DNA of 26,474 nt from Chiloscyllium plagiosum. Taxonomy: Eukaryota. The notes under the pieces were generated by a model. It was not told the origin of the DNA and searched no databases. It worked only from the letters and a program-made list of their open reading frames with translations. The stretch spans positions 15,643,031 through 15,669,504 of the forward strand of contig NC_057752.1 in NCBI RefSeq assembly GCF_004010195.1, in the 5' to 3' direction. Positions 3,150-26,474 of this stretch are shown piece by piece; position 1 is the first letter of the stretch; each line of letters begins with the position of its first letter. The position numbers were made by a program, and so were the translations under genes.

Positions 3150-4290
3150 ATATAATTGTCTCAGATACAGTAATGGCAATATAGATGTGGAAATATTGCA
3201 ACACAAACACCAAGCACAAAGTCTCCTTCTCAATTGTGGAATATTTCTGTTAATGAACATTCAATTTCTGGGAGAAATACCCAATAGGTCTTTCCATCTT
3301 CTTGTCATCTTCCTATAAGTGGACAGCACCGATAGCCAATCACCTGCATTGATAACCACCTTGAAGTTCTTTGCGTAATTAGGTGTGGATAATAGTGGGG
3401 CAGTGATTCACATAGCTTTCAGGCTGTCAAATGCTGTCTGACAGATTGCTGACATTGCAATTTTCTGCACTTCTTCAAAAAGTCAGTGAGTGGAGCAGCC
3501 ACTCTGCTAAAATTTGGCATGAATTTCTGATAAAGGCCACTCAATCCCAGTAATTATAGTACTGCTCTTTTCGTTGATGGTATGGAAACTTCCCAATAAC
3601 CATTGTTGTCACATTCCGTGGGTCCATCTATCCATGTCCGATATCATGACCCAGGAACGTGACTTGGGTTTTAGCAAATTCACTCTTATCCAGCTTTATC
3701 ACCAAGCTGACTTTCTGAAGTCAATCAAATAACTCTGATCGATGCAGCAAATATTCCTCACGTGTGAATAAAAATAACCAGGTCATCGATGTATTCAACA
3801 CAACTGGGTAATTCAGAAATGACTTTATTGTTTAGTCTTTGAAATGTGGTTGGTACATTTTTCATACCAAATGGCATGACTTTAAACTGATACAGTCCAT
3901 TTGGTGTTTCGAAAACTGAAATTGTAATCCCTGTTTCAGATTATGGTACCTGCCAGTCTCCTAAGATTAAGCCCAATTTGGAAATATTAGTTTCTGCTCC
4001 CACATTCTCAACACAGTCTTTCAAGCGTAGAATTGGATATGAATCAGACATTGTAACTGCATGGTCTTGGCAATATTCTGCACATAATTGTTGGGTACCA
4101 TGTGGTTTTGACACCATTACTACGGGGGAGCTCCAGACACTGCAATTCACTTTGATTATGTTGTCTTTGCACATGCACTCAATCTCGTTTCGAAGCTGTG
4201 CCAACTTCAGTGTGTTACGTCGAGAGGGAGGTTGCTTTCTTGGATCAGTTTTTTTCCCTAAATCATGCATAATTTAGGAAAAGTGCATAA
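3150..4290 (-). pseudogene. Ty3/gypsy pol remnant, copy A: RT + RNase H (frameshifts, stops)
   Basis: WSSPVVMVSKPHGTQQLC...DSYPILRLKDC (ORF 3941-4270), MPFGMKN, YIDDL at about 3779-3793, and RNase H-like RPIGYFSQKL...KYSTIEKE at about 3225-3290. Confidence 0.85.
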
Positions 4291-4319
4291 TTATGTGTGG
4301 CGAACTCTGGGCCAGTGGT

Positions 4320-5200
4320 TAACACAGCTTGCAGGCTATAAAATGCCTTCTGCTGTCCAATGAAACTACTTGCCTTTCTTAAGCAATTCAGTAAGAAGAG
4401 CAGCCACACTGCTAAACTTTACTATGCATTACCGATAAAATCCACAAAATCCCAAGAATCGTAGTACTGCTTTTTTTGTGGATGGCATGGGAAACTCCCC
4501 AATTATCTTTGCTTTTGCATTCCATGGTGTCGTTTGTCCATGTCCAATAACATGGACCAGGAAGGTGACTTGGGCTTTGGCAAATTCACTTTAAACAAGA
4601 TTAATCACTAAGCCTGCCTCCCAAAGTCGATCAAACAATTCTAATTAATGTTGCAAATGTTCCTTACATGTGCGAGTAAAAATCACCAGGTCATCAATAT
4701 AAACTACACCATTGGGTCTTCTGGGAATGACCTTATTGACGAGTCTTCGAAATGTGGCTGGCGCATTTTTCATACCAAATGGCATGACTTTAAGTTGGGA
4801 CAGTCCATTCGTTGTTACAAGCCAAAATCGTCTTCACTCTTTTGGACACAGGTTCCTGCCAACATCCTCTGAGCAAGTAGAACTTTGAAATATAAGTCGC
4901 TTCTCCCACATTTTCAACACCGCCTTCCAAACATGGAATTGGATACGAATCAGACTTTGTAACTGTATTAAATTTACGATAGCCCACACAAAACCGTTGG
5001 GTACCATCTGGTTTTGGCACCATTACTATAGGTGAGCTCCAGTCACTGTAACTCACTTTGTTTATGTTGTTTTTGGAGTAGGCGTTCAACCTCCTTTTCA
5101 ACTTGTGCCAGCTTTAGAGAGTTATGCCTATAAGGATGTCACTTCATTGGATCAGCATTATCTATACATACATCATGCATAATTAGATTAGTACTTCCCA
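4320..5200 (-). pseudogene. Ty3/gypsy pol remnant, copy B: RT (diverged from copy A)
   Basis: SDWSSPIVMVPKPDGTQRFCVGYRKFNTVTKSDSYPIP (ORF 4790-5101), [13 protein letters not shown], and VYIDDL at about 4688-4705. Confidence 0.85.
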
Positions 5201-5399
5201 ATTTATTTCAACATACCTCTTCATGTGATAGCAATAACTCTTTCAGGCGATTTCAGTTCTCCTCATGGAAGGTAACTCAATGACTTATTCCAATTTTTGA
5301 CGACTTCTCCTTTTGCTTTACTTCCCTGTCAAAAGATCTTTTGAACATATCCTGGAGTCCTTATCAAATAGTTCACCTCACTCAAGCTCCTTTTGACTT

Positions 5400-6021
5400 A
5401 TTAAGGTCCACTAAACCTTGCTTTTCAAAGTTCATCTATCACTGGAAGTCACTCTAACATCTTATCTCCGAGAGCAAAATTGTGAGCTTTTGATTTCTGG
5501 CCTGCTTCCTGTTTTATTGTATGCTGTGATACTTTTAAATGCTGTCTAACCAACTCGCCCACTCTATTTAATCATTCCCTAAAATTTGACACATGCCCCA
5601 AATGTGTGGTCTCTGAATTCTGACACCAATTTCTCCTTAATCAAGTTCAGAGGTCCTCTCACTTTATGCCCAAAAGCTAATTCAAATGGATTGAATTTGG
5701 TCGATTCATTTGGTACATCTCTGATGGAAAAAAGTACGAATGGAATTCCTTTATCCCAATTATCTAGATAGTCTTGACTATTAACCGTAAACACGGTCTT
5801 CAATATCTGATGCCTCCTTTCTCGCACTCTTTGTGATTCTGGATGGTATGCAGTGGTTTTGAAGTGTTTTATTCCGAAGCTGTCCATAACTTCCTTGAAT
5901 AATTTTGATGCCAAGTTTGACGTTGATCTGATTATATCTCGGTGGGTAGTCTATATCTCGTGAAACTTTTGAGTAACTCCTTCATAATCCTGTGATAATG
6001 TGTAATGGGACAGCCTCTGGA
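5400..6021 (-). pseudogene. Ty3/gypsy integrase (rve core) remnant, upstream of RT; runs into assembly gap
   Basis: FTRYRLPTEI*SDQ, GIKHFKTTAYHPESQ...ERRHQILK...WDKGIPFVLFSIRDVPNESTKFNPFELAFGHKVRGPL (ORF 5579-5914). Confidence 0.85.
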
Positions 6022-6521
6022 NNNNNNNNNNNNNNNNNNNNNNNNNNNNNNNNNNNNNNNNNNNNNNNNNNNNNNNNNNNNNNNNNNNNNNNNNNNNNNN
6101 NNNNNNNNNNNNNNNNNNNNNNNNNNNNNNNNNNNNNNNNNNNNNNNNNNNNNNNNNNNNNNNNNNNNNNNNNNNNNNNNNNNNNNNNNNNNNNNNNNNN
6201 NNNNNNNNNNNNNNNNNNNNNNNNNNNNNNNNNNNNNNNNNNNNNNNNNNNNNNNNNNNNNNNNNNNNNNNNNNNNNNNNNNNNNNNNNNNNNNNNNNNN
6301 NNNNNNNNNNNNNNNNNNNNNNNNNNNNNNNNNNNNNNNNNNNNNNNNNNNNNNNNNNNNNNNNNNNNNNNNNNNNNNNNNNNNNNNNNNNNNNNNNNNN
6401 NNNNNNNNNNNNNNNNNNNNNNNNNNNNNNNNNNNNNNNNNNNNNNNNNNNNNNNNNNNNNNNNNNNNNNNNNNNNNNNNNNNNNNNNNNNNNNNNNNNN
6501 NNNNNNNNNNNNNNNNNNNNN
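6022..6521. other. Assembly gap (500 N)
   Basis: Run of N. Confidence 1.
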
Positions 6522-7989: not shown

Positions 7990-8490
7990 CAGCAGTGGGA
8001 CTGGTGAGAGTGTGGAGGAAGGGGCTGCTGGGAAGGTCAATTAACCCTTTACTAACTTATCCCATGAATACGCGGATCACACGTTAGCAGAAGCACACAA
8101 GGGACTGCTGAGTAAGTGAGGTAATATATTTGGGTGGTTGCTTTACCTAAAACACTACTTCGGTAGGGTCTCTCACCAATCCTACTCCTCTTCCTCTAAC
8201 CAAAAAAAAAAGGTTTTGTGCACCGATTCATTCAGGTAAGTAGTTGTTTCAATAGTCTGTTTGGGAATTCAGAACAGTGGGAATGGATGTAAGGGCAGTT
8301 GCATGATCCTCCGGCCGGATGTGGGAAGTAAGGGTCACTAATCGTGTCCCCAATTACTTCATCTGTCAGAATTTCTCCCAGTTCCAGCTCCTCGGAAACT
8401 GTATTAGGGAACTGGAGCTGGAGCTGGATGAACTTCGCATCATTTGGAAGGCAGAGGATTTATCATACATGAATTCCAGGGACGTAGTCT
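7990..8490 (+). mobile_element. CR1 LINE 5' part (5' UTR and ORF1 N-terminus), interrupted at 8490
   Basis: From ATG 8283: MDVRAVA*SSGRMWEVRVT...FICQNFSQFQLL...IRELELELDELRII...RDVV, a degenerate Zn-finger plus coiled coil typical of CR1 ORF1. It continues at 10781. The 5' boundary is approximate. Confidence 0.75.
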
Positions 8491-8514
8491 TGAGGATCTA
8501 AAATTTGAATTTAG

Positions 8515-10375
8515 GCTGTTGTTAGAAGCATCGAGTGTATGCAGATTTCTATTAACGACTCCGCCGTCTCCAACCTTGCAAAGGGAGAGATGATAAAGAT
8601 CAAACTTGACCTGCTGTGTGGACTTGCCATTGCCAGCATTGGTGCACAAGAAGGGACAGTTTACCTGTGCGATCCTGAGCAAACAGAGACTGTGTACCAA
8701 CTATGTCAGAAAGATGTCCTTGTGTGCCAAGAGATTGAATGTTACCAAGAATGACTATTGCAGTGGTCAACTGCATCAAAAACATTGACCAGTTCATTTA
8801 CAGACCACGTCTAAATGGTCTTTACTCTTTAAAGGTGTTGTGTGACAGTTTGATTTCATTTGTACTATGGGCATCCCTGGTAAGCCTTGTCGCCTTTCAG
8901 ATAGATCACGTAGTAAAAGAGACAAAGGGGGGTTTTTATCCTTCACTAACAATTTGTTTCTAGAAAGCCATAACATATTTGGAGAGGATGAAGTAGTTTG
9001 TTATGTCCTTACTTCAGCAACAGACTCCCTGACCCCTTTTACCTTCTAAGTCCTAACATGGGGGTATAGAATAGTTCTAAATTATGTACAGGATTATGGA
9101 CTTCCTCCAATAAATCCACGATATCCTATCCAAATTGCTACAATGGTAAGGGATGGGGGGTGCGCTATGTCAAAGTGCCTAAAATTATCCCCTGTGCTCT
9201 GGTAAAATGTATCAGTCGTCACTGCTTCCCTAAAGGAGCTCGCAACTCGTGCGTATGCCTTAAGGAGGAATGTGTTTATATTACCACTACTATTCAAACC
9301 CTTTGTGGGGTGGGTAGCAACACCCACCTTCATTATGATACCTCTAATGGCACTAATATTTTCCCAATTATTGGATGGGTAGAAACATTCTGGGATATTG
9401 ACCACGTCTCTTATCAAGAGACCCACCTCATTCGACTAAATGATTTTCAGTCTTTACGTTCGGGACCAAACAAATAATCATGGATTACCCAGATACTCCA
9501 GGAAGTCACAAAAATAGGCCCGCTTCTTATTGGGAAGGTCCCTCCGTTATCTATACTAAACCTGGATATTATTTTTTCAGTGATAATAACGCATCTAAAT
9601 ACCTTGTCCCGAATAGAAGAAGTACTCCTCGTGTTGTAGCGGTAGGAACACTATTTCCAACTACTGTTGCCTGTCCACTTGCCTGGCAACGAGATTCAAA
9701 TTCCCCTGTTAAACATTCAGTTTCTCCTGACTTTTGTGCAGATTGGAAGAATCCAAAGGCCATATCAAGAAGTAAAACTCACTCATTGGCATATGCGGCT
9801 CTTAGTGTTCTTTCTGTAGGAGGGTCATCAGGAATTATTAGTCATCAAAACCGTAATTCCGTAATTAATCTCATTTGTGGACTCACGATTTTGGGAAATG
9901 AGACAACTGTTGTCCTAATAGAAATTAGTGACATACTTTCAGAATTGTGCCTATTTACCCAACAAAACCGCTGTGCACTCGATTACATGCTTGTGAAAGA
10001 ACGTGGAGTTTGTGCAATAGTCAAAGGAAAGTGCAACATGGAGGTCACTAATTTTATCGAAAACATTACTAGACATATAGATAATATCCACACTTTTGTC
10101 AACCAAATGAATGAAGGTGCATGATTGGGTTTTGGCTCATGGTACAACTGGCTAATCAATATGGCTATATATGCTGTTATTGTTTGAGTTGGTATTTTGC
10201 TGGTATTGCTATTGTTAACTGTATTATTGCTAAAATGTTAGATTCTATTGACATCATTGGTTCCACCCAGAAAATACTTCTCCACTCAGCTGATGGTGAG
10301 GAAGCACCAGTGCCTGCCCCGGGTTACTCTTCGGAGGAAGAGAAAGTTTGGCAGTCATTCGCTGCCATCAAATTG
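8515..10375 (+). pseudogene. env: Retroviral-type envelope glycoprotein (SU-TM) pseudogene with filovirus GP2-like TM
   Basis: Pieced from ORFs 8539-8754, 8867-9049, 9160-9477, 9480-10124 and 10121 onward. Shows a Cys-rich SU, a degenerate cleavage site PVKH (9705-9716), a hydrophobic fusion segment SLAYAALSVLSVGG, ISD-like QQNRCALDYML, CAIVKGKC, a Trp-rich membrane-proximal region and a hydrophobic anchor at about 10140-10235. Several stops and frameshifts. Confidence 0.85.
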
Positions 10376-10572
10376 NNNNNNNNNNNNNNNNNNNNNNNNN
10401 NNNNNNNNNNNNNNNNNNNNNNNNNNNNNNNNNNNNNNNNNNNNNNNNNNNNNNNNNNNNNNNNNNNNNNNNNNNNNNNNNNNNNNNNNNNNNNNNNNNN
10501 NNNNNNNNNNNNNNNNNNNNNNNNNNNNNNNNNNNNNNNNNNNNNNNNNNNNNNNNNNNNNNNNNNNNNNNN
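10376..10572. other. Assembly gap (197 N) hiding the env end, PPT and start of the 3' LTR
   Basis: Run of N. Confidence 1.
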
Positions 10573-10776
10573 TAAATAATGTGTAATTTTCGAATGTAAT
10601 TGCGCCATTTCTCCAGGGAACACAAAAGCTTTTAACCTTCGTGTTGCTGGACAAATCTGCGTGAGGCTGCTTTAATTAATTAAACTGGCAATTTTGCTTT
10701 AAACAGACTATACTCCTCGTGATTCTTTTGACCGATCTCGAACCAAGAGGCCCCTGTGGAAGGGTCTAGATCTTCA
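10573..10776 (+). repeat. Visible part (probably R-U5) of the 3' LTR of the env-bearing element
   Basis: Non-coding, with candidate poly(A) signal ATTAAA at 10679-10684. Ends in the terminal inverted repeat and CA. Confidence 0.6.
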
Positions 10777-10780
10777 GTCT

Positions 10781-13228
10781 CACCTCAGGTACAAGAAAAA
10801 AGGTAGATGGGTTACAGTCAAGGGGATGGAAAGGGAACAGGCAGTGAGTGCTGGGATTTGCTGTGGCCATCGCCTCTACAGTAAATATACTATTTTGGAT
10901 ACTATTGCGGGGTGGGGATTGTCTACCAGGGGAAAGCTATAGTGGCCAGTTTTCTGGGAGAGAATAGAAAAGTGCTAATCGCAGGGAACTCAATAGTGAG
11001 AGAAATGGACAGGAGATTTTGAGGTTGCGATCGGGATTCCGGGAAGGTATGTTCCAGGGTCAGGGATGTCTCTGATCGTGTCTACAAGATTATGAAGTGG
11101 GAGGGTGAGCAGCCCAGAAATCATGGTGCGCATTGGCACCAATGACACAGCTAGGAAAAAGAATGAGGGTCTAAAAAGTGACTTCAGGGAGTTAGGTTGG
11201 AAACTAAAAAGCAGGACAAGCAGAGTAGTAATCTCAGGATTACTACTGGTGCCACGTGCTTGCGATGCGAGGAACAGGGAGCGACTGCAGTGAAACACGT
11301 GACGACAAGGCGGTTGCAGGAGGGAGGGCTTCAGATACATAGATTACTGGGGTACCTTCTGGGGAATGTGGGACCTGTTCATGAAGAATGGGCTACACAT
11401 AAACTAGAGGGGAACCAATGTCCTGGGTGGGAAATTTGTGAAACACTTTGGGAGGTCTTAAACTAGTTTGGTAGAGTGATGGGAATCAGAGCTACAGATC
11501 AGAGGAGAGGGTAGTTGTTGAAGCGGCACAAATAGAATGCAGAGAATCTGTCAGGAAGGATACAGAGTTGTTAGGCCAAATGGATGGGTTAAAGTGTGTC
11601 TGTTTCAATGCAAGGAGTGTCAGGAATTAGTGGTGAAATTGGAGCATGGATCAGTACTTGGAAATACGGCATTGTAGTCATAATGGAGACATGGATTTCA
11701 AAGGAAGAGGAATGGATGCTGAATAACCATGGAGAGGGTTATGAACTAACAGTATGGGAAGGTCTTTTATAACGAACAGGAGGGAGGAGCATTATTAATT
11801 CAAGAGTGCATCGCAAATGCAGAAAAGGAGGTTGTTGAGGAGGGTTTGTCTTCTGAGTCAGTATGGGTGGAAGTCAGTAAAACGAAAGGAGGAGTCACTT
11901 CATTTGGTGCTTTCTATAGCATCCCTCCCCACCCCGCCCCAAATAGAAGCAGAGAGATGGAAATACAGATTGGACAGCCGATCTTGGAAGGGTGCAGATG
12001 AAACAGAGTTGTTGTTATGGGCGACTTCAACATCCCTAGTATTGATTGGAACCTCCATAATGCAGATGGTCTGAATGAGGCCAATTTTATCAGGTGTGTC
12101 CAGGAAGGATTCCTGACTCAATATGTAGATTCGCCAGCTAAGGGGTGGCCATATTGGTTTATGTGCTCGGTCCCCAGCCAGGCCAGATGCCAGATCTCTT
12201 GGTCAGACAGCATTTCGGTGAAAGTGACCACAACTGCCTCACATTTACCATAACCATGGAGAGGGTTATGAAATAACAGTATGGGAAGGTATTTAATTCG
12301 GGGAGGGGAAATTATACTGCTATTAGACAGGAGCTGTGGATTATAAATTCGGAATAATTGTTTTATGGGAAATGCACAATATAAATGTGGAGATTTATGA
12401 AGGAGCAGTTGTTGAACAACTGTTTCCCACTGTTACAGGCAAGGAATGATAAGGTGGCGAAGCCTTGGATGACAAGAGAAGAGGAGAAGGTTGAGCAAGC
12501 AAGGATCTGGCACAGCTTTACACGATTACAGGGTGGCGAGGAAAGAACGCAAAAAATGGACTGAGGAGACCGAGGAGGATGCACGAAAATGCCTGGGCAA
12601 GAAGGAGTAGGGAAAACTCAAAGGCATTCTATACTTACGTGAGGAATAAGCGGATGATCGGAGAGAGGGTAGGGCCAATCAGGGATAGTGGAGGGAACTT
12701 ATGGCTGGAGTGTGAAGAGATAGGGGAGGCCCTAAATGAGATTTTTGTTTCAGAGGGATCTTGTTGATAGTGAGAACAACGTGGACCAGATTAATAGGCT
12801 TTAACAGATTGATATTAAGGAAGTGGATGTGCTGGAAATTCTGTGAAGCATTAAGATAGTACCAGATATATCCAAGGAGTAGTACTGGATGATTGGAGGG
12901 AGGTGAATATTGTTCCTCTATTCAAGAAAGGGAAAAGGGAAATCTCTAGGAATTACAGACCAGTCAGTCTTATGTCTGTAATAAACTAGGTAGTGGAAAG
13001 ATTCTGGGAGATAGGATTTATAACTATTTGGAAAAACATAGTTTGATTAGAGATAGTCAATGTTGCATTGTGAGGGGCAGGTCATGCCTCTCAAGCCTTA
13101 CTAAGTTCTTGGCGAATGTGACAAGACAGGTTGACAAAGGTCGAGCAGTGTATGTGGTGTATATGGGTTTCAGTAATGCATTTAATAATATACCCCACGG
13201 TATGCTCATTCAGAAGGTGAGGAGGTAT
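10781..13228 (+). mobile_element. CR1 LINE continuation: ORF1 SGNH esterase domain and ORF2 (APE endonuclease, RT N-terminal part), decayed
   Basis: GRWVTV follows the junction; VRIGTNDTARK...SRVVISGLLLVP (esterase); LKCVCFNARSVRN at about 11590; MGDFNIPSIDW; PLFKKG...NYRPVSL; VRGRSCLSSL...AVYVVYMGFSNAF. Confidence 0.85.
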
Positions 13229-18284: not shown

Positions 18285-18899
18285 AAGGCATATGGCGTAC
18301 TGGCTTTTATTGGTAGAGGAATTGAGTTCCAGAGTACTGAGGTCATTTGCAGTTGTATAAAACTCTGGTGCGGCCGCATCTGGAGTATTGTGTGCAGTTT
18401 TGGTCGCCATACTATAGGAAGGATGTGGAGGCACCGGAACGGGTGCAGAGGAGGTTTACCAGGGTGTTGCCTGGTATGGTAGAAAGATCGTATGAGGAAA
18501 GGCTGAGGCACTTGGGGTTGTTTTCATTGGAGAAAAGAAGGTTTAGGGGGTGACTTGATAGAGGTGTACAAGATGATTAGGGGTTTAGATAGAGTCGACA
18601 GTGAGAATCTTTTTCCACGTATGGAGTCAGCTATTACAAGGGGGCATAGCTTTAAATTAAGGGGGGGTAGGTATAGGGCAGATGTTAGGGGTAGGTTCTT
18701 TACTCAGCGAGTCGTGAGTTCATGGAATGCCCTGCCAGTAGCAGTGGTGGACTCTCCCTCATTATGGGCATTTAAGCGGGCATTGGATAGGCATATGGAG
18801 GATAGTGGGCTAGTGTAGGTTAGGTGGGCTTGGATCGGCTCAACATCGAGGGCCAAAGGGCCTGTACTGCGCTGTATTCTTCTATGTTCTATGTTCTAT
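18285..18899 (+). mobile_element. Young CR1/HER1-like LINE 3' end
   Basis: [23 protein letters not shown]...RGHSFKLRGGRYRADVRGRFFTQRVVSSWNALP; tail (TTCTATG)n; one frameshift in a G run near 18546-18550. Confidence 0.9.
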
Positions 18900-18949: not shown

Positions 18950-19562
18950 CATGTGAAGAGAGGTCAGCTAGCAGAATGTGCAGCTTGTCACGTGGGGAGT
19001 CCTGGACATTGTCAGTGACCAAGATGACCACATGTGCAGGAGGTGTTCCCAGTGCAGAAACTGGAGCTCTGGGTCTCGGAACTTGAGCAACAGTTGGAGA
19101 CACTGTGGCACAACCACAAGGCTGAGAGTGACATGGATAGCACGTTTAGAGAGGTGGTCACACTGCAGCTCAAGGGGCTAGAGGGAAGATGGGAATGAGC
19201 TGAAAATGTGTTGCTGGAAAAGCGCAGCAGGTCAGCTGAAAACGTGTTGCTGGAAAAGCGCAGCAGGTCAGGAAGAAGGGAATGGGTGACCACCATACAG
19301 TCCAGGATTCACAGGCAGGTAGTGCAGGAGTCCCCTGGGGTCCAACTCGCTAACTGGTATTCCATTTTGGAAGCTGATGTGGGTGCTGTGAATTCAGAGG
19401 AATGCAGTCAGAGTCAAGCGACTGGCACCACAAGCGGCTTGACTGTACAGGGGGAGGAATAAAGGAAGAGGATTAGTGGTAGGGGATTCTTTAGTCAGGG
19501 GCCAGACATCTGCACCCAAAGATGTGACTCTAGGATGGTGTGTTCCCTTCCTAATGCCAGGG
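18950..19562 (+). mobile_element. CR1 LINE ORF1 5' fragment (second family)
   Basis: ECAAC...DDHMCRRC (Zn finger), LELWVSELEQQLETLW (coiled coil), FREVVT, EWVT, VQESPGVQLANWYSIL, VVGDSLVRG (SGNH start). Confidence 0.7.
19198..19270. repeat. Tandem 36-bp dimer inserted in CR1 ORF1, flanked by 14-bp direct repeats
   Basis: AGCTGAAAA(T/C)GTGTTGCTGGAAAAGCGCAGCAGGTC twice (19198-19233, 19234-19269). Flanks are GGAAGATGGGAATG (19184-19197) and GGAAGAAGGGAATG (19271-19284). Confidence 0.85.
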
Positions 19563-22509: not shown

Positions 22510-23200
22510 TGATGATGCACTCCAGCCCCTGCAGTGCCCACCAGTCTCGAAAGGCCTCATCTATGCTGTCCAGGGACACCCAAGGGCAAATCTACCCGTG
22601 AAAGAGGGCAGACAGTTAGAAATTGCAAGCCTCTCATTGGCCTGTTGCCTGGCCATCTTGGCCAGGACCAGGAGCAGAGACATGAGAAGGCCTGTAAAGT
22701 TGTCTGCCCATCCCCACACCTGGTGTCAGTAGATCAGGAGGGTGGTACTGAAATGTAAACATTTTAACAGCAGTCCCTTCAAAAACCGAACAAGAAGCTG
22801 CAAGTGATCACACTGGACATACACATGGAAAACCGTCTCCTCCAGGTCACAGAACGTGTGTGTGGTCTGACACCTGGTGAACTCCCTCATCTGACAGTTG
22901 TTTGGGACCACTGCAGGCAGCATTCTCCACACCAGATCCCTGGAGTAAGAGGGGAGGACCCCTTTGTAGATGACCCTCCGATAGGAATGTCAGCTCACAG
23001 AGGGAAAAACGTCACACCAAGGCATGTCCGGGCAGTGGGCTGAGGCGTAAAAGTGGAAAATGTGCAGCATCAGCCCGTACAGATAACGCCTCAGTGCTGT
23101 TCGAAAGGACACCGGGAAGATTTCCCTCAGTCAGCTCAGATTGTGGAACACTGCTTCACGGGGGAGGGTACGGGCTGTGGGGCTGATATCGAGTTCCAGA
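22510..23200 (-). mobile_element. L1/Tx1-clade non-LTR retrotransposon, ORF2 C-terminal (zf-RVT-like) fragment
   Basis: WRMLPAVVPNN...TFCDLEETVFHVYVQCDHLQLL.RFLKGLLLK..HFSTTLLIY, followed by LLVLAKMARQQ. Resembles the Tx1-type CCHC C-terminal region; boundaries approximate. Confidence 0.7.
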
Positions 23201-23477
23201 TGGACAGGGATCAGAATACTGTCTCCGTTCTTGCTCCAGAGGACACTGTGTGACACTGATCGTTCCCCATTTATTCATGTTCATCCATCGGTCTTGATGC
23301 AGTAGTCTCTGGTGTGACTTAAATGTGCTGTTTAATGGCATCCTTTTATTAATGCTCTGAGTACACTTGTCGTCATCGTTAATACTAGACAGATTTGCTC
23401 CGACAGAAACTTTCTTTTCCTCCATCCTATCACTGTTATCCATTCCCCTTCACATGGTGTGGCATTACCATTTGTTT

Positions 23478-24355
23478 TATTGATGCTTATATTGAATAAT
23501 TCGCTTAAAAGGAAACATAATGTGTTTATGAACTTTTCTCTGAACTTGGACAGTGTTGCTACATAAATAAGTGTGTTTGTACAGCAGTTTATATCCCGGA
23601 GCATATTTGCGATATATCTGAAGACATATTCAGAATTATTGTCTAATAATGGATCTAAAGTATAAAAATATTTCAAAAGGTACCACATCCATAGAAGGAT
23701 GAAGCTACTGGATATTGCGAAGAGTAAAATGATAGACTTTCTTCTGCTCTCCATCTCTGGGTCACAATGATTCTGCCCCTTGCTCTGATCCCTCAGTCTC
23801 TTATGGGCCCGACTGGCCACTAAAATGTACCTGACTGTCAGAGTGTTGATCAACAGAATTAAAGCAAATGGGAGCATTGGAGTTAAGACCTTTTCAAACC
23901 TATTGAATACTACCCGTACGGGATCATTATAATATGCTTCAGTATTGGTGCAGAGCCACTCGACATTGTTAATGATTCATTTAGCTTCGTACCTGAAGTA
24001 GGTGGGAATGTTTTTGAAACAGAGTAGAATGCCTGTTGTTGCTAGAACCACTGCCGCAGTTTTCTTGGTGCAATATTTTGTTTTCAACTTCTGGCAACAA
24101 ATCGATCAAAGGTAAAAGTGACGGTGAACCAGACAGAACAATCAGTGGCAGCACGGCGCAGGGTATAGTGAACTCTGCAGACAGTCGTCACATCCAAGAA
24201 ATTCCCAGGGAAATAATAATCATTGATCCGATACAGTATGACCTCAAGGATAATGTACAGCAGATCCGCTGTCACCATGGTGACCAGGTAACACGTGGTG
24301 CATGGCGAGATTCCACATTTTCTGCTGAATAAAACCACAAGTGCCAGTAATTTCA
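23478..24355 (-). pseudogene. Class A GPCR, GPR139/GPR142-like, main coding exon, disabled
   Basis: Splice acceptor CCTTTCCCTTCACTCTCCCACAG| at 24356. Translation gives KCGISPCTTCYLVTMVTADLL, SVWFTVTFTFDRFV, KTKYCTKKTA, LPFALILLINTLTVRYILVASR, DPEMESRRKSIILLFAIS and NCCTNTLIYVAT. There is a frameshift at about 24100, an in-frame TGA at 23977-23979 and a probable further frameshift near 23518. Confidence 0.85.
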
Positions 24356-24838
24356 CTGTGGGAGAGTGAAGGGAAAGGAGATTAGAAATTACAGGAAAAT
24401 CATTCACAGTTCCTGAGGACAGACCATTGAACAAAACAAATCAGCAATGACTTCAACAAACTTCGAATGTGTACAGATCAGGGTAAAGATCAGGTTGAAC
24501 AGGTATCAGACAGAGGGATGGAAGCAGGTCAGTGCTTTAATATTCCAATGAGGAATTGTGTGTCTGAAGCTGGAGAAGTGCAACTTTGGAGTAGACCCTT
24601 TGCTCCACCGGCTGCAACGTGTTCGATTTCCTTTTCTGTTCCAAAGTGCATCACCTGCCAGGAAATACTCACTACCCCATTAGACTCACTCTCTGAGTTG
24701 AGTGTCTTTCCTTCACATGTCACATTTTGTGGTCTTACCTCTTGTAGATCAGCCTTAATCACCATTACTGTCACTCCTTCCACAGTGCCCCAGCACATTA
24801 ATGAGCCAATCCTTTTTTGGGAATTTGTAATTGACTGG

Positions 24839-25872: not shown

Positions 25873-26474
25873 ACATAGAACATAGAAGAATACAGCGCAG
25901 TACAGGCCCTTCGGCCCTCGATGTTGCGCCGATCCAAGCCCACCTAACCTACACTAGCCCACTATCCTCCATATGCCTATCCAATGCCCGCTTAAATGCC
26001 CATAATGAGGGAGAGTCCACCACTGCTACTGGAAGGGCATTCCATGAATTCACGACTCGCTGAGTAAAGAACCTACCCCTAACATCTGTCCTACACCTAC
26101 ACCCCCCTTAATTTAAAGCTATGTCCCCATTTAATAGCTGACTCCATTCATGGAATAAGATTCTCACTGTCGAACCTATCTAAACCCCTAATCATCTTGT
26201 ACACCTCTATCAAGTCACCCTTAAACCTTCTTTTCTCCAATGAAAACAGCCCCAAGTGCCTCAGCCTTTCCTCATACGATCTTTCTACCATCCCAGGCAA
26301 CATCCTGGTAAACCTCCTCTGCACCCGTTCCAGTGCCTCCACATCCTTTCTATAGTATGGCGACCAAAACTGCACACAATACTCCAGATGCGGCCGCACC
26401 AGAGTCTTATACAACTGCAACATGATCTCAGGACTCCGGAACTCAATTCCTCTACCAATAAAAGCCAGTACGCC
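25873..26474 (-). mobile_element. Young CR1/HER1-like LINE 3' end (continues beyond window)
   Basis: ORF 26148-26423 [21 protein letters not shown]...; (CATAGAA)n tail at 25873; same subfamily as 18285-18899. Confidence 0.9.

Follow-up and report, generated by a model that had tools for sequence, protein, structure and literature searches.

A probable 5′-deleted and decayed copy of a chondrichthyan endogenous retrovirus with a GP2-like envelope gene

Filovirus-like ectodomains have been described in retroviral elements of cartilaginous fishes (Nino Barreat and Katzourakis 2024, PMC11521997), and in the excerpts of that paper which, like excerpts of the other papers cited here, are the basis of our comparisons, the chondrichthyan ectodomains appear as sister to those of ebola-, cueva-, marburg- and dianloviruses with a posterior of 0.83. 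Coordinates of the long terminal repeats (LTRs) are given there for 6 of 14 chondrichthyan loci, with spans of 5.8–10.3 kb and three skate loci that are short (5.8–6.4 kb), and the ectodomain lies 670, 680, 885, 937, 1019 or 3398 bp from the nearer end, the values of 670 and 680 bp belonging to whale-shark loci. Here we analyze a stretch of 26,474 nucleotides of Chiloscyllium plagiosum (contig NC_057752.1, positions 15,643,031 to 15,669,504, hereafter the window), in which an insertion carrying an envelope gene (env) splits a long interspersed element (LINE). We conclude that this insertion is probably a 5′-deleted, decayed copy of a chondrichthyan endogenous retrovirus (ERV) with an envelope resembling the glycoprotein GP2 of ebolaviruses, and that elements of this kind are already in print.

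As in the published elements (PMC11521997), a GP2-like ectodomain is found here in an LTR element of a shark-type genome, and its distance to the nearer end, 625–685 bp with an assembly gap taken at its assembled size, is similar to that of the two whale-shark loci; in contrast to their 5.8–10.3 kb, the window copy measures about 2.3 kb with about 66 bp of 5′ LTR, the comparison being one of ectodomain and layout. With the gamma-type envelopes, which include forms of alpharetroviruses and filoviruses (Hogan and Johnson 2023, PMC9967133), it shares a stretch like the immunosuppressive domain (ISD), an N-glycan site (NET) in heptad repeat 1 and a membrane anchor, whereas the CX6CC motif, a hallmark there, lacks its third Cys in the clade of the window copy. 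Proviruses of type 1 human immunodeficiency virus (HIV-1) formed by premature second-strand transfer (PMC12657518) and 5′-LTR-less proviruses of type 1 human T-cell leukemia virus (HTLV-1; PMC6950816) resemble it in having a defective 5′ LTR joined to internal sequence and a retained 3′ LTR, and the HTLV-1 cases also keep the duplication at both ends; they differ in that the HTLV-1 duplication abuts internal sequence, whereas the window copy keeps a true U3 terminus, and in that all of these are somatic copies of human viruses, while for the window copy a pre-integration origin is one of two candidate routes. Old ERVs, complete or fragmentary, are likewise described from cartilaginous fish as CmiERV I–III of the elephant shark (Han 2015, PMC4422223), which, unlike the window copy without pol, were classed by pol as snakehead-like and epsilon-like.

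The insertion begins with TGAGGATCTA (8491–8500), starting with TG, and ends with TAGATCTTCA (10767–10776), ending with CA, the two arms forming an inverted repeat at 9 of 10 positions between two copies of GTCT. This end motif by itself is not beyond chance, given that a rule demanding a 4-bp duplication, TG..CA and an inverted repeat of at least 9/10 at a distance of 0.2–12 kb finds 12 pairs in the window, many of them due to inverted LINE copies, with a mean of 3.2 (range 0–7) in 40 Markov controls; it is independent contig data that make the boundaries real. Part of the insertion is contained in 20 of the 24 public runs listed, in organisms A, B and C, and contigs of four runs, X1 and X2 (organism A), X9 (B) and X15 (C), were aligned to 8240–11030; the counts of loose ends and joints given throughout refer to the rows listed, which are part of longer tables. 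All four runs have contigs with loose ends before 8491 whose match starts exactly at this base (45 in X1, 26 in X2, 45 in X9 and 46 in X15), and the flanks before it agree at 0.36–0.39, which means many different flanks, as for a family terminus inserted at many sites. Empty copies of the host LINE jump from 8451–8457 to 10776, and among the five listed joints landing on 10776, four have the exact length for a single GTCT and one is one base short by hand count. With both ends fixed by the contigs, the rough chance of the motif falls to 6e-9 under equal base frequencies.

These are the features of an integrase-type LTR element, namely, TG...CA termini with an inverted repeat and a 4-bp duplication that is single in the empty site. 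The first-pass annotation of this DNA had already described these ends and the duplication, and the contig flanks at 8491 and the single-GTCT empty sites bear it out; its reading of them as an integrase signature likewise holds, with the ends and the duplication observed and the integrase itself presumed, and so does its view that the GP2-like gene arrived inside an LTR element and not as an RNA-virus message copied by a LINE. Its further statement that excision restores open reading frame 1 (ORF1) of the LINE is right as far as the joined codons go (gac gta gtc tca cct cag gta caa), but within a few further codons ORF1 goes out of frame again, and it has stops. Among the flanks in the four runs, the plurality letter is T at the second base ahead of the duplication, C at the duplication's first position and G at its last, and the window reads TA[GTCT]CA; both agree with what is reported on the site preferences of integrases making 4-bp duplications (PMC4422553), which is a weak argument because the flanks agree at about 0.37 and some loci may be common to several runs. 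A 4-bp duplication is compatible with gamma and spuma viruses alike (PMC4422553) and therefore does not decide the ERV class.

At the left side, nine X2 contigs match through 8556 and then go jointly into other sequence (agreement 0.78), and the alignment of one X9 contig (record 21) covers 8558–8873, preceded by 27 unaligned letters, so that the junction is bracketed at 8556/8558; this leaves an LTR piece of about 66 bp and, ahead of env, another piece of about 32 bp. Other copies of the family depart from the window sequence on both sides of this point. The junction had previously been placed at 8514/8515, only about 24 bp of the insertion before env-like coding sequence; no loose end falls there among the rows listed, the contigs place the junction near 8556/8558, and the distance was mistaken, given that the env ATG is at 8590, homology to relatives starts at 8620–8659, and the peptide read from 8515 (AVVRSIEC-MQISIND), which is mostly LTR sequence, was matched by nothing, relatives included. 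What does stand from that account is the absence of gag, pol and the primer-binding site (PBS), since the 99 bp before env are too short to contain them and no gag or pol Pfam family was matched in the three forward frames of 8491–10375. This absence lowers the case for a complete provirus, not that for the remnant of one.

At the right side, an assembly gap interrupts the element, and inside it one would expect env to end, followed by the polypurine tract and the first part of the 3′ LTR. The visible 3′ LTR has TAAATA at 10573, a possible tail of a TATA box, and ATTAAA at 10679, a possible polyadenylation signal, both functions being putative. No match was found between 8491–8556 and 10573–10776, and the expected second copy of 8491–8556 would fall in the gap. 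The insertion holds two purine runs of at least 10 bases (8580 and 10333), neither of which precedes an LTR start. A 13-letter motif, picked after the loose ends at 8556 had been seen, occurs once in the window, at 10621–10633 in the 3′ LTR, but because of this choice after the fact, it is a mere hint of a single LTR lineage at both ends. Relatives P0005 and P0007 terminate in a GGN-type peptide, which we would expect where env runs into a polypurine tract. Separately, some contigs share the final 57 LTR bases but differ before 10720, and others skip 10633–10719, which indicates that the family has LTR variants. The only Rfam match was sub-threshold and was taken as chance, and a search for tRNAs found none.

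Features of the insertion and its host element (positions of the window)
Feature	Position	Strand	Evidence
Host LINE ORF1, 5′ part, decayed	8283..8486	+	Translation; very high summed depth in 4/4 runs; other copies join across the insertion
Left target-site duplication, GTCT	8487..8490	+	Sequence; single copy in empty LINE copies
5′ LTR remnant (putative U3 start, about 66 bp) with left attachment (att) end TG and inverted-repeat arm 8491–8500	8491..8556	+	Matches of 26–46 contigs per run start at 8491; those of 9 X2 contigs stop at 8556; U3 from position
Putative deletion junction, LTR to pre-env	8556..8558	+	Bracketed by X2 loose ends behind 8556 and one X9 contig (record 21) aligning from 8558
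Pre-env sequence, about 32 bp	8558..8589	+	Aligned together with env in X9 record 21
env pseudogene, whole length, collinear with 646–664-aa relatives	8590..10375	+	tblastn of P0007, P0053, P0015, P0016, P0009; Pfam; PDB
Assembly gap, 197 N; assembled size, not true size	10376..10572		Closed by none of the listed contig rows
Visible 3′ LTR part, with inverted-repeat arm 10767–10776 and right att end CA	10573..10776	+	14–31 contigs at each listed place, 4/4 runs
Right target-site duplication, GTCT	10777..10780	+	Sequence; LINE joints land on 10776
Remaining host LINE: esterase-like part of ORF1, followed by ORF2 with remnants of endonuclease and reverse transcriptase (RT)	10781..13200	+	Weak Pfam matches below cut-off

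The env gene is whole-length but dead. From its ATG onward, it keeps the order of a signal-peptide-like start, a Cys-rich N-terminal domain, RSKR (8909–8920), the surface subunit (SU), the transmembrane subunit (TM, from about 9717, with the ISD and CX6C at 9960–10034), a membrane anchor and a tail, and its relatives P0007 (646 aa) and P0053 (664 aa) match from just past the ATG. At least four frame changes (near 8735, 9050–9120, 9425–9510 and 10130–10240) and in-frame stops at 8786, 8843, 9047, 10122 and 10185 interrupt it. The Pfam families TLV_coat (E 3e-4) and Ebola-like_HR1-HR2 (E 0.011) stay below cut-off here and rise above it in P0007, and against the PDB, the TM matches ebolavirus GP2 at E 7e-11, syncytin-2 at E 0.002 and the avian sarcoma and leukosis virus TM at E 0.012, so that it is closer to GP2 than to the solved retroviral TMs. 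A gamma-type ISD-like stretch and heptad repeats are present. The third Cys of CX6CC is missing in all 18 printed rows of the chondrichthyan clade, the window included (CX6C, 10011–10037), while the ebolavirus GP2 row has it; in the printed segments, CX6CC is seen in 10 of the 20 rows outside the clade, and the squamate rows and Tapajos virus likewise have CX6C. With this Cys missing, the TM is gamma-type in its working and yet departs from the strict gamma-type motif, and the link between SU and TM may differ in the chondrichthyan lineage.

Two env layouts are seen in the clade, a long one (this copy, P0007 and P0053) in which a Cys-rich domain of about 110–130 aa, together with a furin-like basic site, separates the signal peptide from the conserved NLF motif (8590–8920 in the window), and a short one (P0008, P0010 and P0051) in which SU starts directly after the signal peptide. 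When the N-terminal domain of the P0053 env was searched against the Atlas, env clusters came up at 0.87–0.90 with 118–136 shared features, plus two unrelated low rows, and this is to be read as a lead only.

Multiple copies of this env occur in organisms A, B and C, with up to 37 contigs per listed place, and the longest listed pieces of the family differ by about 12–17% from the window env, with C>T and G>A among the commonest changes. Low-depth X1 contigs (depth about 22–24, five listed places) carry the private env letters of the window copy. Among proteins, shark and ray gene models (Heterodontus, Pristiophorus, Mobula, Hemiscyllium, Chiloscyllium and Scyliorhinus) come nearest, with about 36–64% identity over the TM block, and they alone would make a cartilaginous-fish host very probable. 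For the tree of this block, 34 of 36 segments were used, P0017 and P0037 having been dropped by the trimming rule, with a hand-chosen outgroup; it places the window TM within a 14-row clade of named shark and ray proteins (92/85), leaves the Callorhinchus env (P0029) outside this clade, and puts ebolavirus GP2 (P0034) as sister to the chondrichthyan clade on a branch flagged as long. This repeats the topology of PMC11521997 at weak support (82/78), in a tree from which that paper's own sequences are absent. In a catshark (Scyliorhinus torazame by record names), 52 env sequences form the P0021 cluster, with which P0053 and P0055 were noted, at an identity of at least 90%, and two of the listed members have 664-aa frames; this suggests a recent amplification of the env lineage in the catshark.

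We consider it probable that this locus is a one-off defective provirus. In this reading, a retrovirus with a filovirus-like gamma-type envelope, from a lineage once abundant in cartilaginous fish, would have integrated into ORF1 of a LINE copy and left the 4-bp duplication through its presumed integrase. The missing part would begin near base 67 of the 5′ LTR and stop about 32 bp short of the env start and, judging from the normal proviral layout, would comprise the rest of U3, R, U5, the PBS, gag and pol, lost in what would be a single event at this locus. Loss of the left half is an ordinary fate for ERV copies. The loss may have come about by non-homologous deletion in the germline after integration, to which we give close to an even chance, or, with lower but still appreciable likelihood, by a premature second-strand transfer during reverse transcription, which would join the first U3 bases to an internal site and keep both att ends, so that integrase would still accept the DNA. 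Strand-transfer deletions were reportedly addressed in early retroviral-vector work by Pulsinelli and Temin. In HIV-1, 20 of 23 large deletions from PCRs covering the 5′ region began upstream of the PBS (PMC12657518), and loss of the 5′ LTR before integration is described for HTLV-1 (PMC6950816). The first-pass annotation had favored a post-insertion deletion: that most of the 5′ LTR, gag and pol were lost is indeed the best reading, but a pre-integration loss by strand transfer would give the observed structure as well. After either event, env would have decayed neutrally, and the copy cannot be recopied by the retroviral route because it is without the 5′ promoter, R and PBS, as established retrovirology teaches.

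Several points weigh against this account of a one-off defective provirus. The env side of the junction is given by one contig only, and the departure at 8556 is listed for the X2 run only. Neither the junction between LINE and LTR nor 8556/8558 is spanned by any listed contig, the latter by none of the 33 piece rows listed, so this copy's junction has no independent confirmation. LTR variants exist (X1 loose ends before 10720), and the X2 contigs may therefore be a variant diverging at 8556 for another reason. Neither a full-length relative with these termini nor a linked pol was recovered, so gag and pol are inferred: alignment-pattern searches for relatives gave 26 pattern matches in viral contigs and 107 in metagenome contigs, none confirmed in either set, and the protein searches found no long pol-env protein, which is weak evidence. 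One published locus has its ectodomain 3.4 kb from the nearer end, and the published loci (PMC11521997) may not be of the same family. As for candidates discarded, four metagenome loci found with a 19-base LTR-end pattern match over only 21–22 bases, without env, and were attributed to chance.

It is unlikely that the animal has a whole or longer provirus, in which the collapse of a repeat led a short-read assembly to connect the LTR start with env. The window does have N gaps (6022–6521 and 10376–10572), the family is repetitive, and such an artefact is conceivable because no listed contig spans the junction; against it, the window's own sequence has no repeat at 8556/8558, relatives differ on both sides of this point, so that no shared repeat is visible to collapse, and the X1 contigs with the private env letters indicate that reads do contain this env copy, although X1 is possibly the source sample itself. 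Quite unlikely, too, is a family of small non-autonomous elements made of a short left end, env and a 3′ LTR, mobilized in trans by a helper. The multicopy env in organisms A, B and C, the catshark cluster of 52 at 90% identity with some 664-aa frames, the three short skate loci (PMC11521997), and the fact that recurrence of the junction was judged on the listed contigs would all speak for such a family, but reverse transcription is established to need the PBS and the 5′ R and to yield two equal LTRs, the window copy has neither PBS nor 5′ R, and other copies diverge at both sides of a junction that 0 of 33 listed pieces span. Among the literature matches listed, the term “env-only” was absent and “LTR-env-LTR” occurred once, which does not show that such structures are unpublished.

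A spliced env RNA that was reverse-transcribed and integrated, with the left end as the remnant of a leader exon, is very improbable. Catshark gene models with four different upstream sequences converge 7–8 codons before the env Met, suggesting an acceptor, and the window breaks about 11 codons before it; however, the left piece is the start of U3, which is not in the 5′ end of a transcript, the sequence after 8556 in other copies does not start with a GT donor, no AG precedes 8558 in the window, and a spliced copy would keep a full 5′ LTR and PBS. Hardly credible is that env lies inside one very long LTR, the 2.3-kb insertion being a solo LTR, as its single TG...CA unit with a duplication might suggest: other copies of the terminus do not run on into env, the env ends of relatives enter polypurine-tract-like sequence, and the published loci place the ectodomain before an LTR at the usual distance (PMC11521997). 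For this alternative and for a mobile env-only family, both raised in the first-pass annotation, we found no support. Least probable of all is a filovirus glycoprotein mRNA copied in by a LINE with its termini arising by chance, even if the TM is nearer to ebolavirus GP2 than to the solved retroviral TMs and the end motif is common by chance, given that the terminus belongs to a family with many flanks, a poly-A tail is absent, and the nearest proteins, with which the tree groups this env, are the shark and ray gene models.

Outside the insertion, the Pfam matches in the remaining host LINE are Lipase_GDSL_2 (E 0.002), Exo_endo_phos_2 (E 2e-4) and RVT_1 (E 0.004), and we take this LINE to be of CR1 type in view of its esterase-like ORF1. 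Two LINE 3′ ends (18294–18894 and 25873–26474) form an inverted pair with 93–97% complementarity, much younger than the LINE bearing the provirus, and another LINE ORF1-like remnant contains a 36-bp tandem duplication (19198–19271). The minus strand at 3415–5950 holds the decayed pol of an LTR retrotransposon, in which two copies of RT stand about 906 bp from each other (74–79% identity), and an integrase-like peptide without a Pfam match (5579–5950) lies upstream of the RT, on the strand opposite to env and with no link to env seen; integrase before RT is the order of Gmr1-type Gypsy elements. Also on the minus strand are a rhodopsin-family G protein-coupled receptor sequence in two frames (23332–24440; 7tm_1, E 7.5e-6 and 6e-4), probably a pseudogene or an assembly frameshift, and a weak zf-RVT match (22726–22989; E 0.006), which we take as a probable L1/Tx1-type remnant.

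In summary, the finding matters little as it stands, being one more decayed copy of a retroviral lineage from which, as already published, the GP2 ectodomain of ebolaviruses and marburgviruses is likely to stem. Its contribution lies in the exact termini, the 4-bp duplication and the target-site pattern of such an element, none of which we saw in the excerpts of PMC11521997, and in showing a clade without the third Cys of CX6CC that ebolavirus GP2 has. Were the loss to predate integration, premature second-strand transfer would have left a germline fossil at this locus. If, instead, the junction between short U3 and env recurs at many sites, envelope genes would have a new mode of movement, and env-only elements with unequal ends would have moved without a PBS or 5′ R, spreading a filovirus-like fusion gene through shark genomes.

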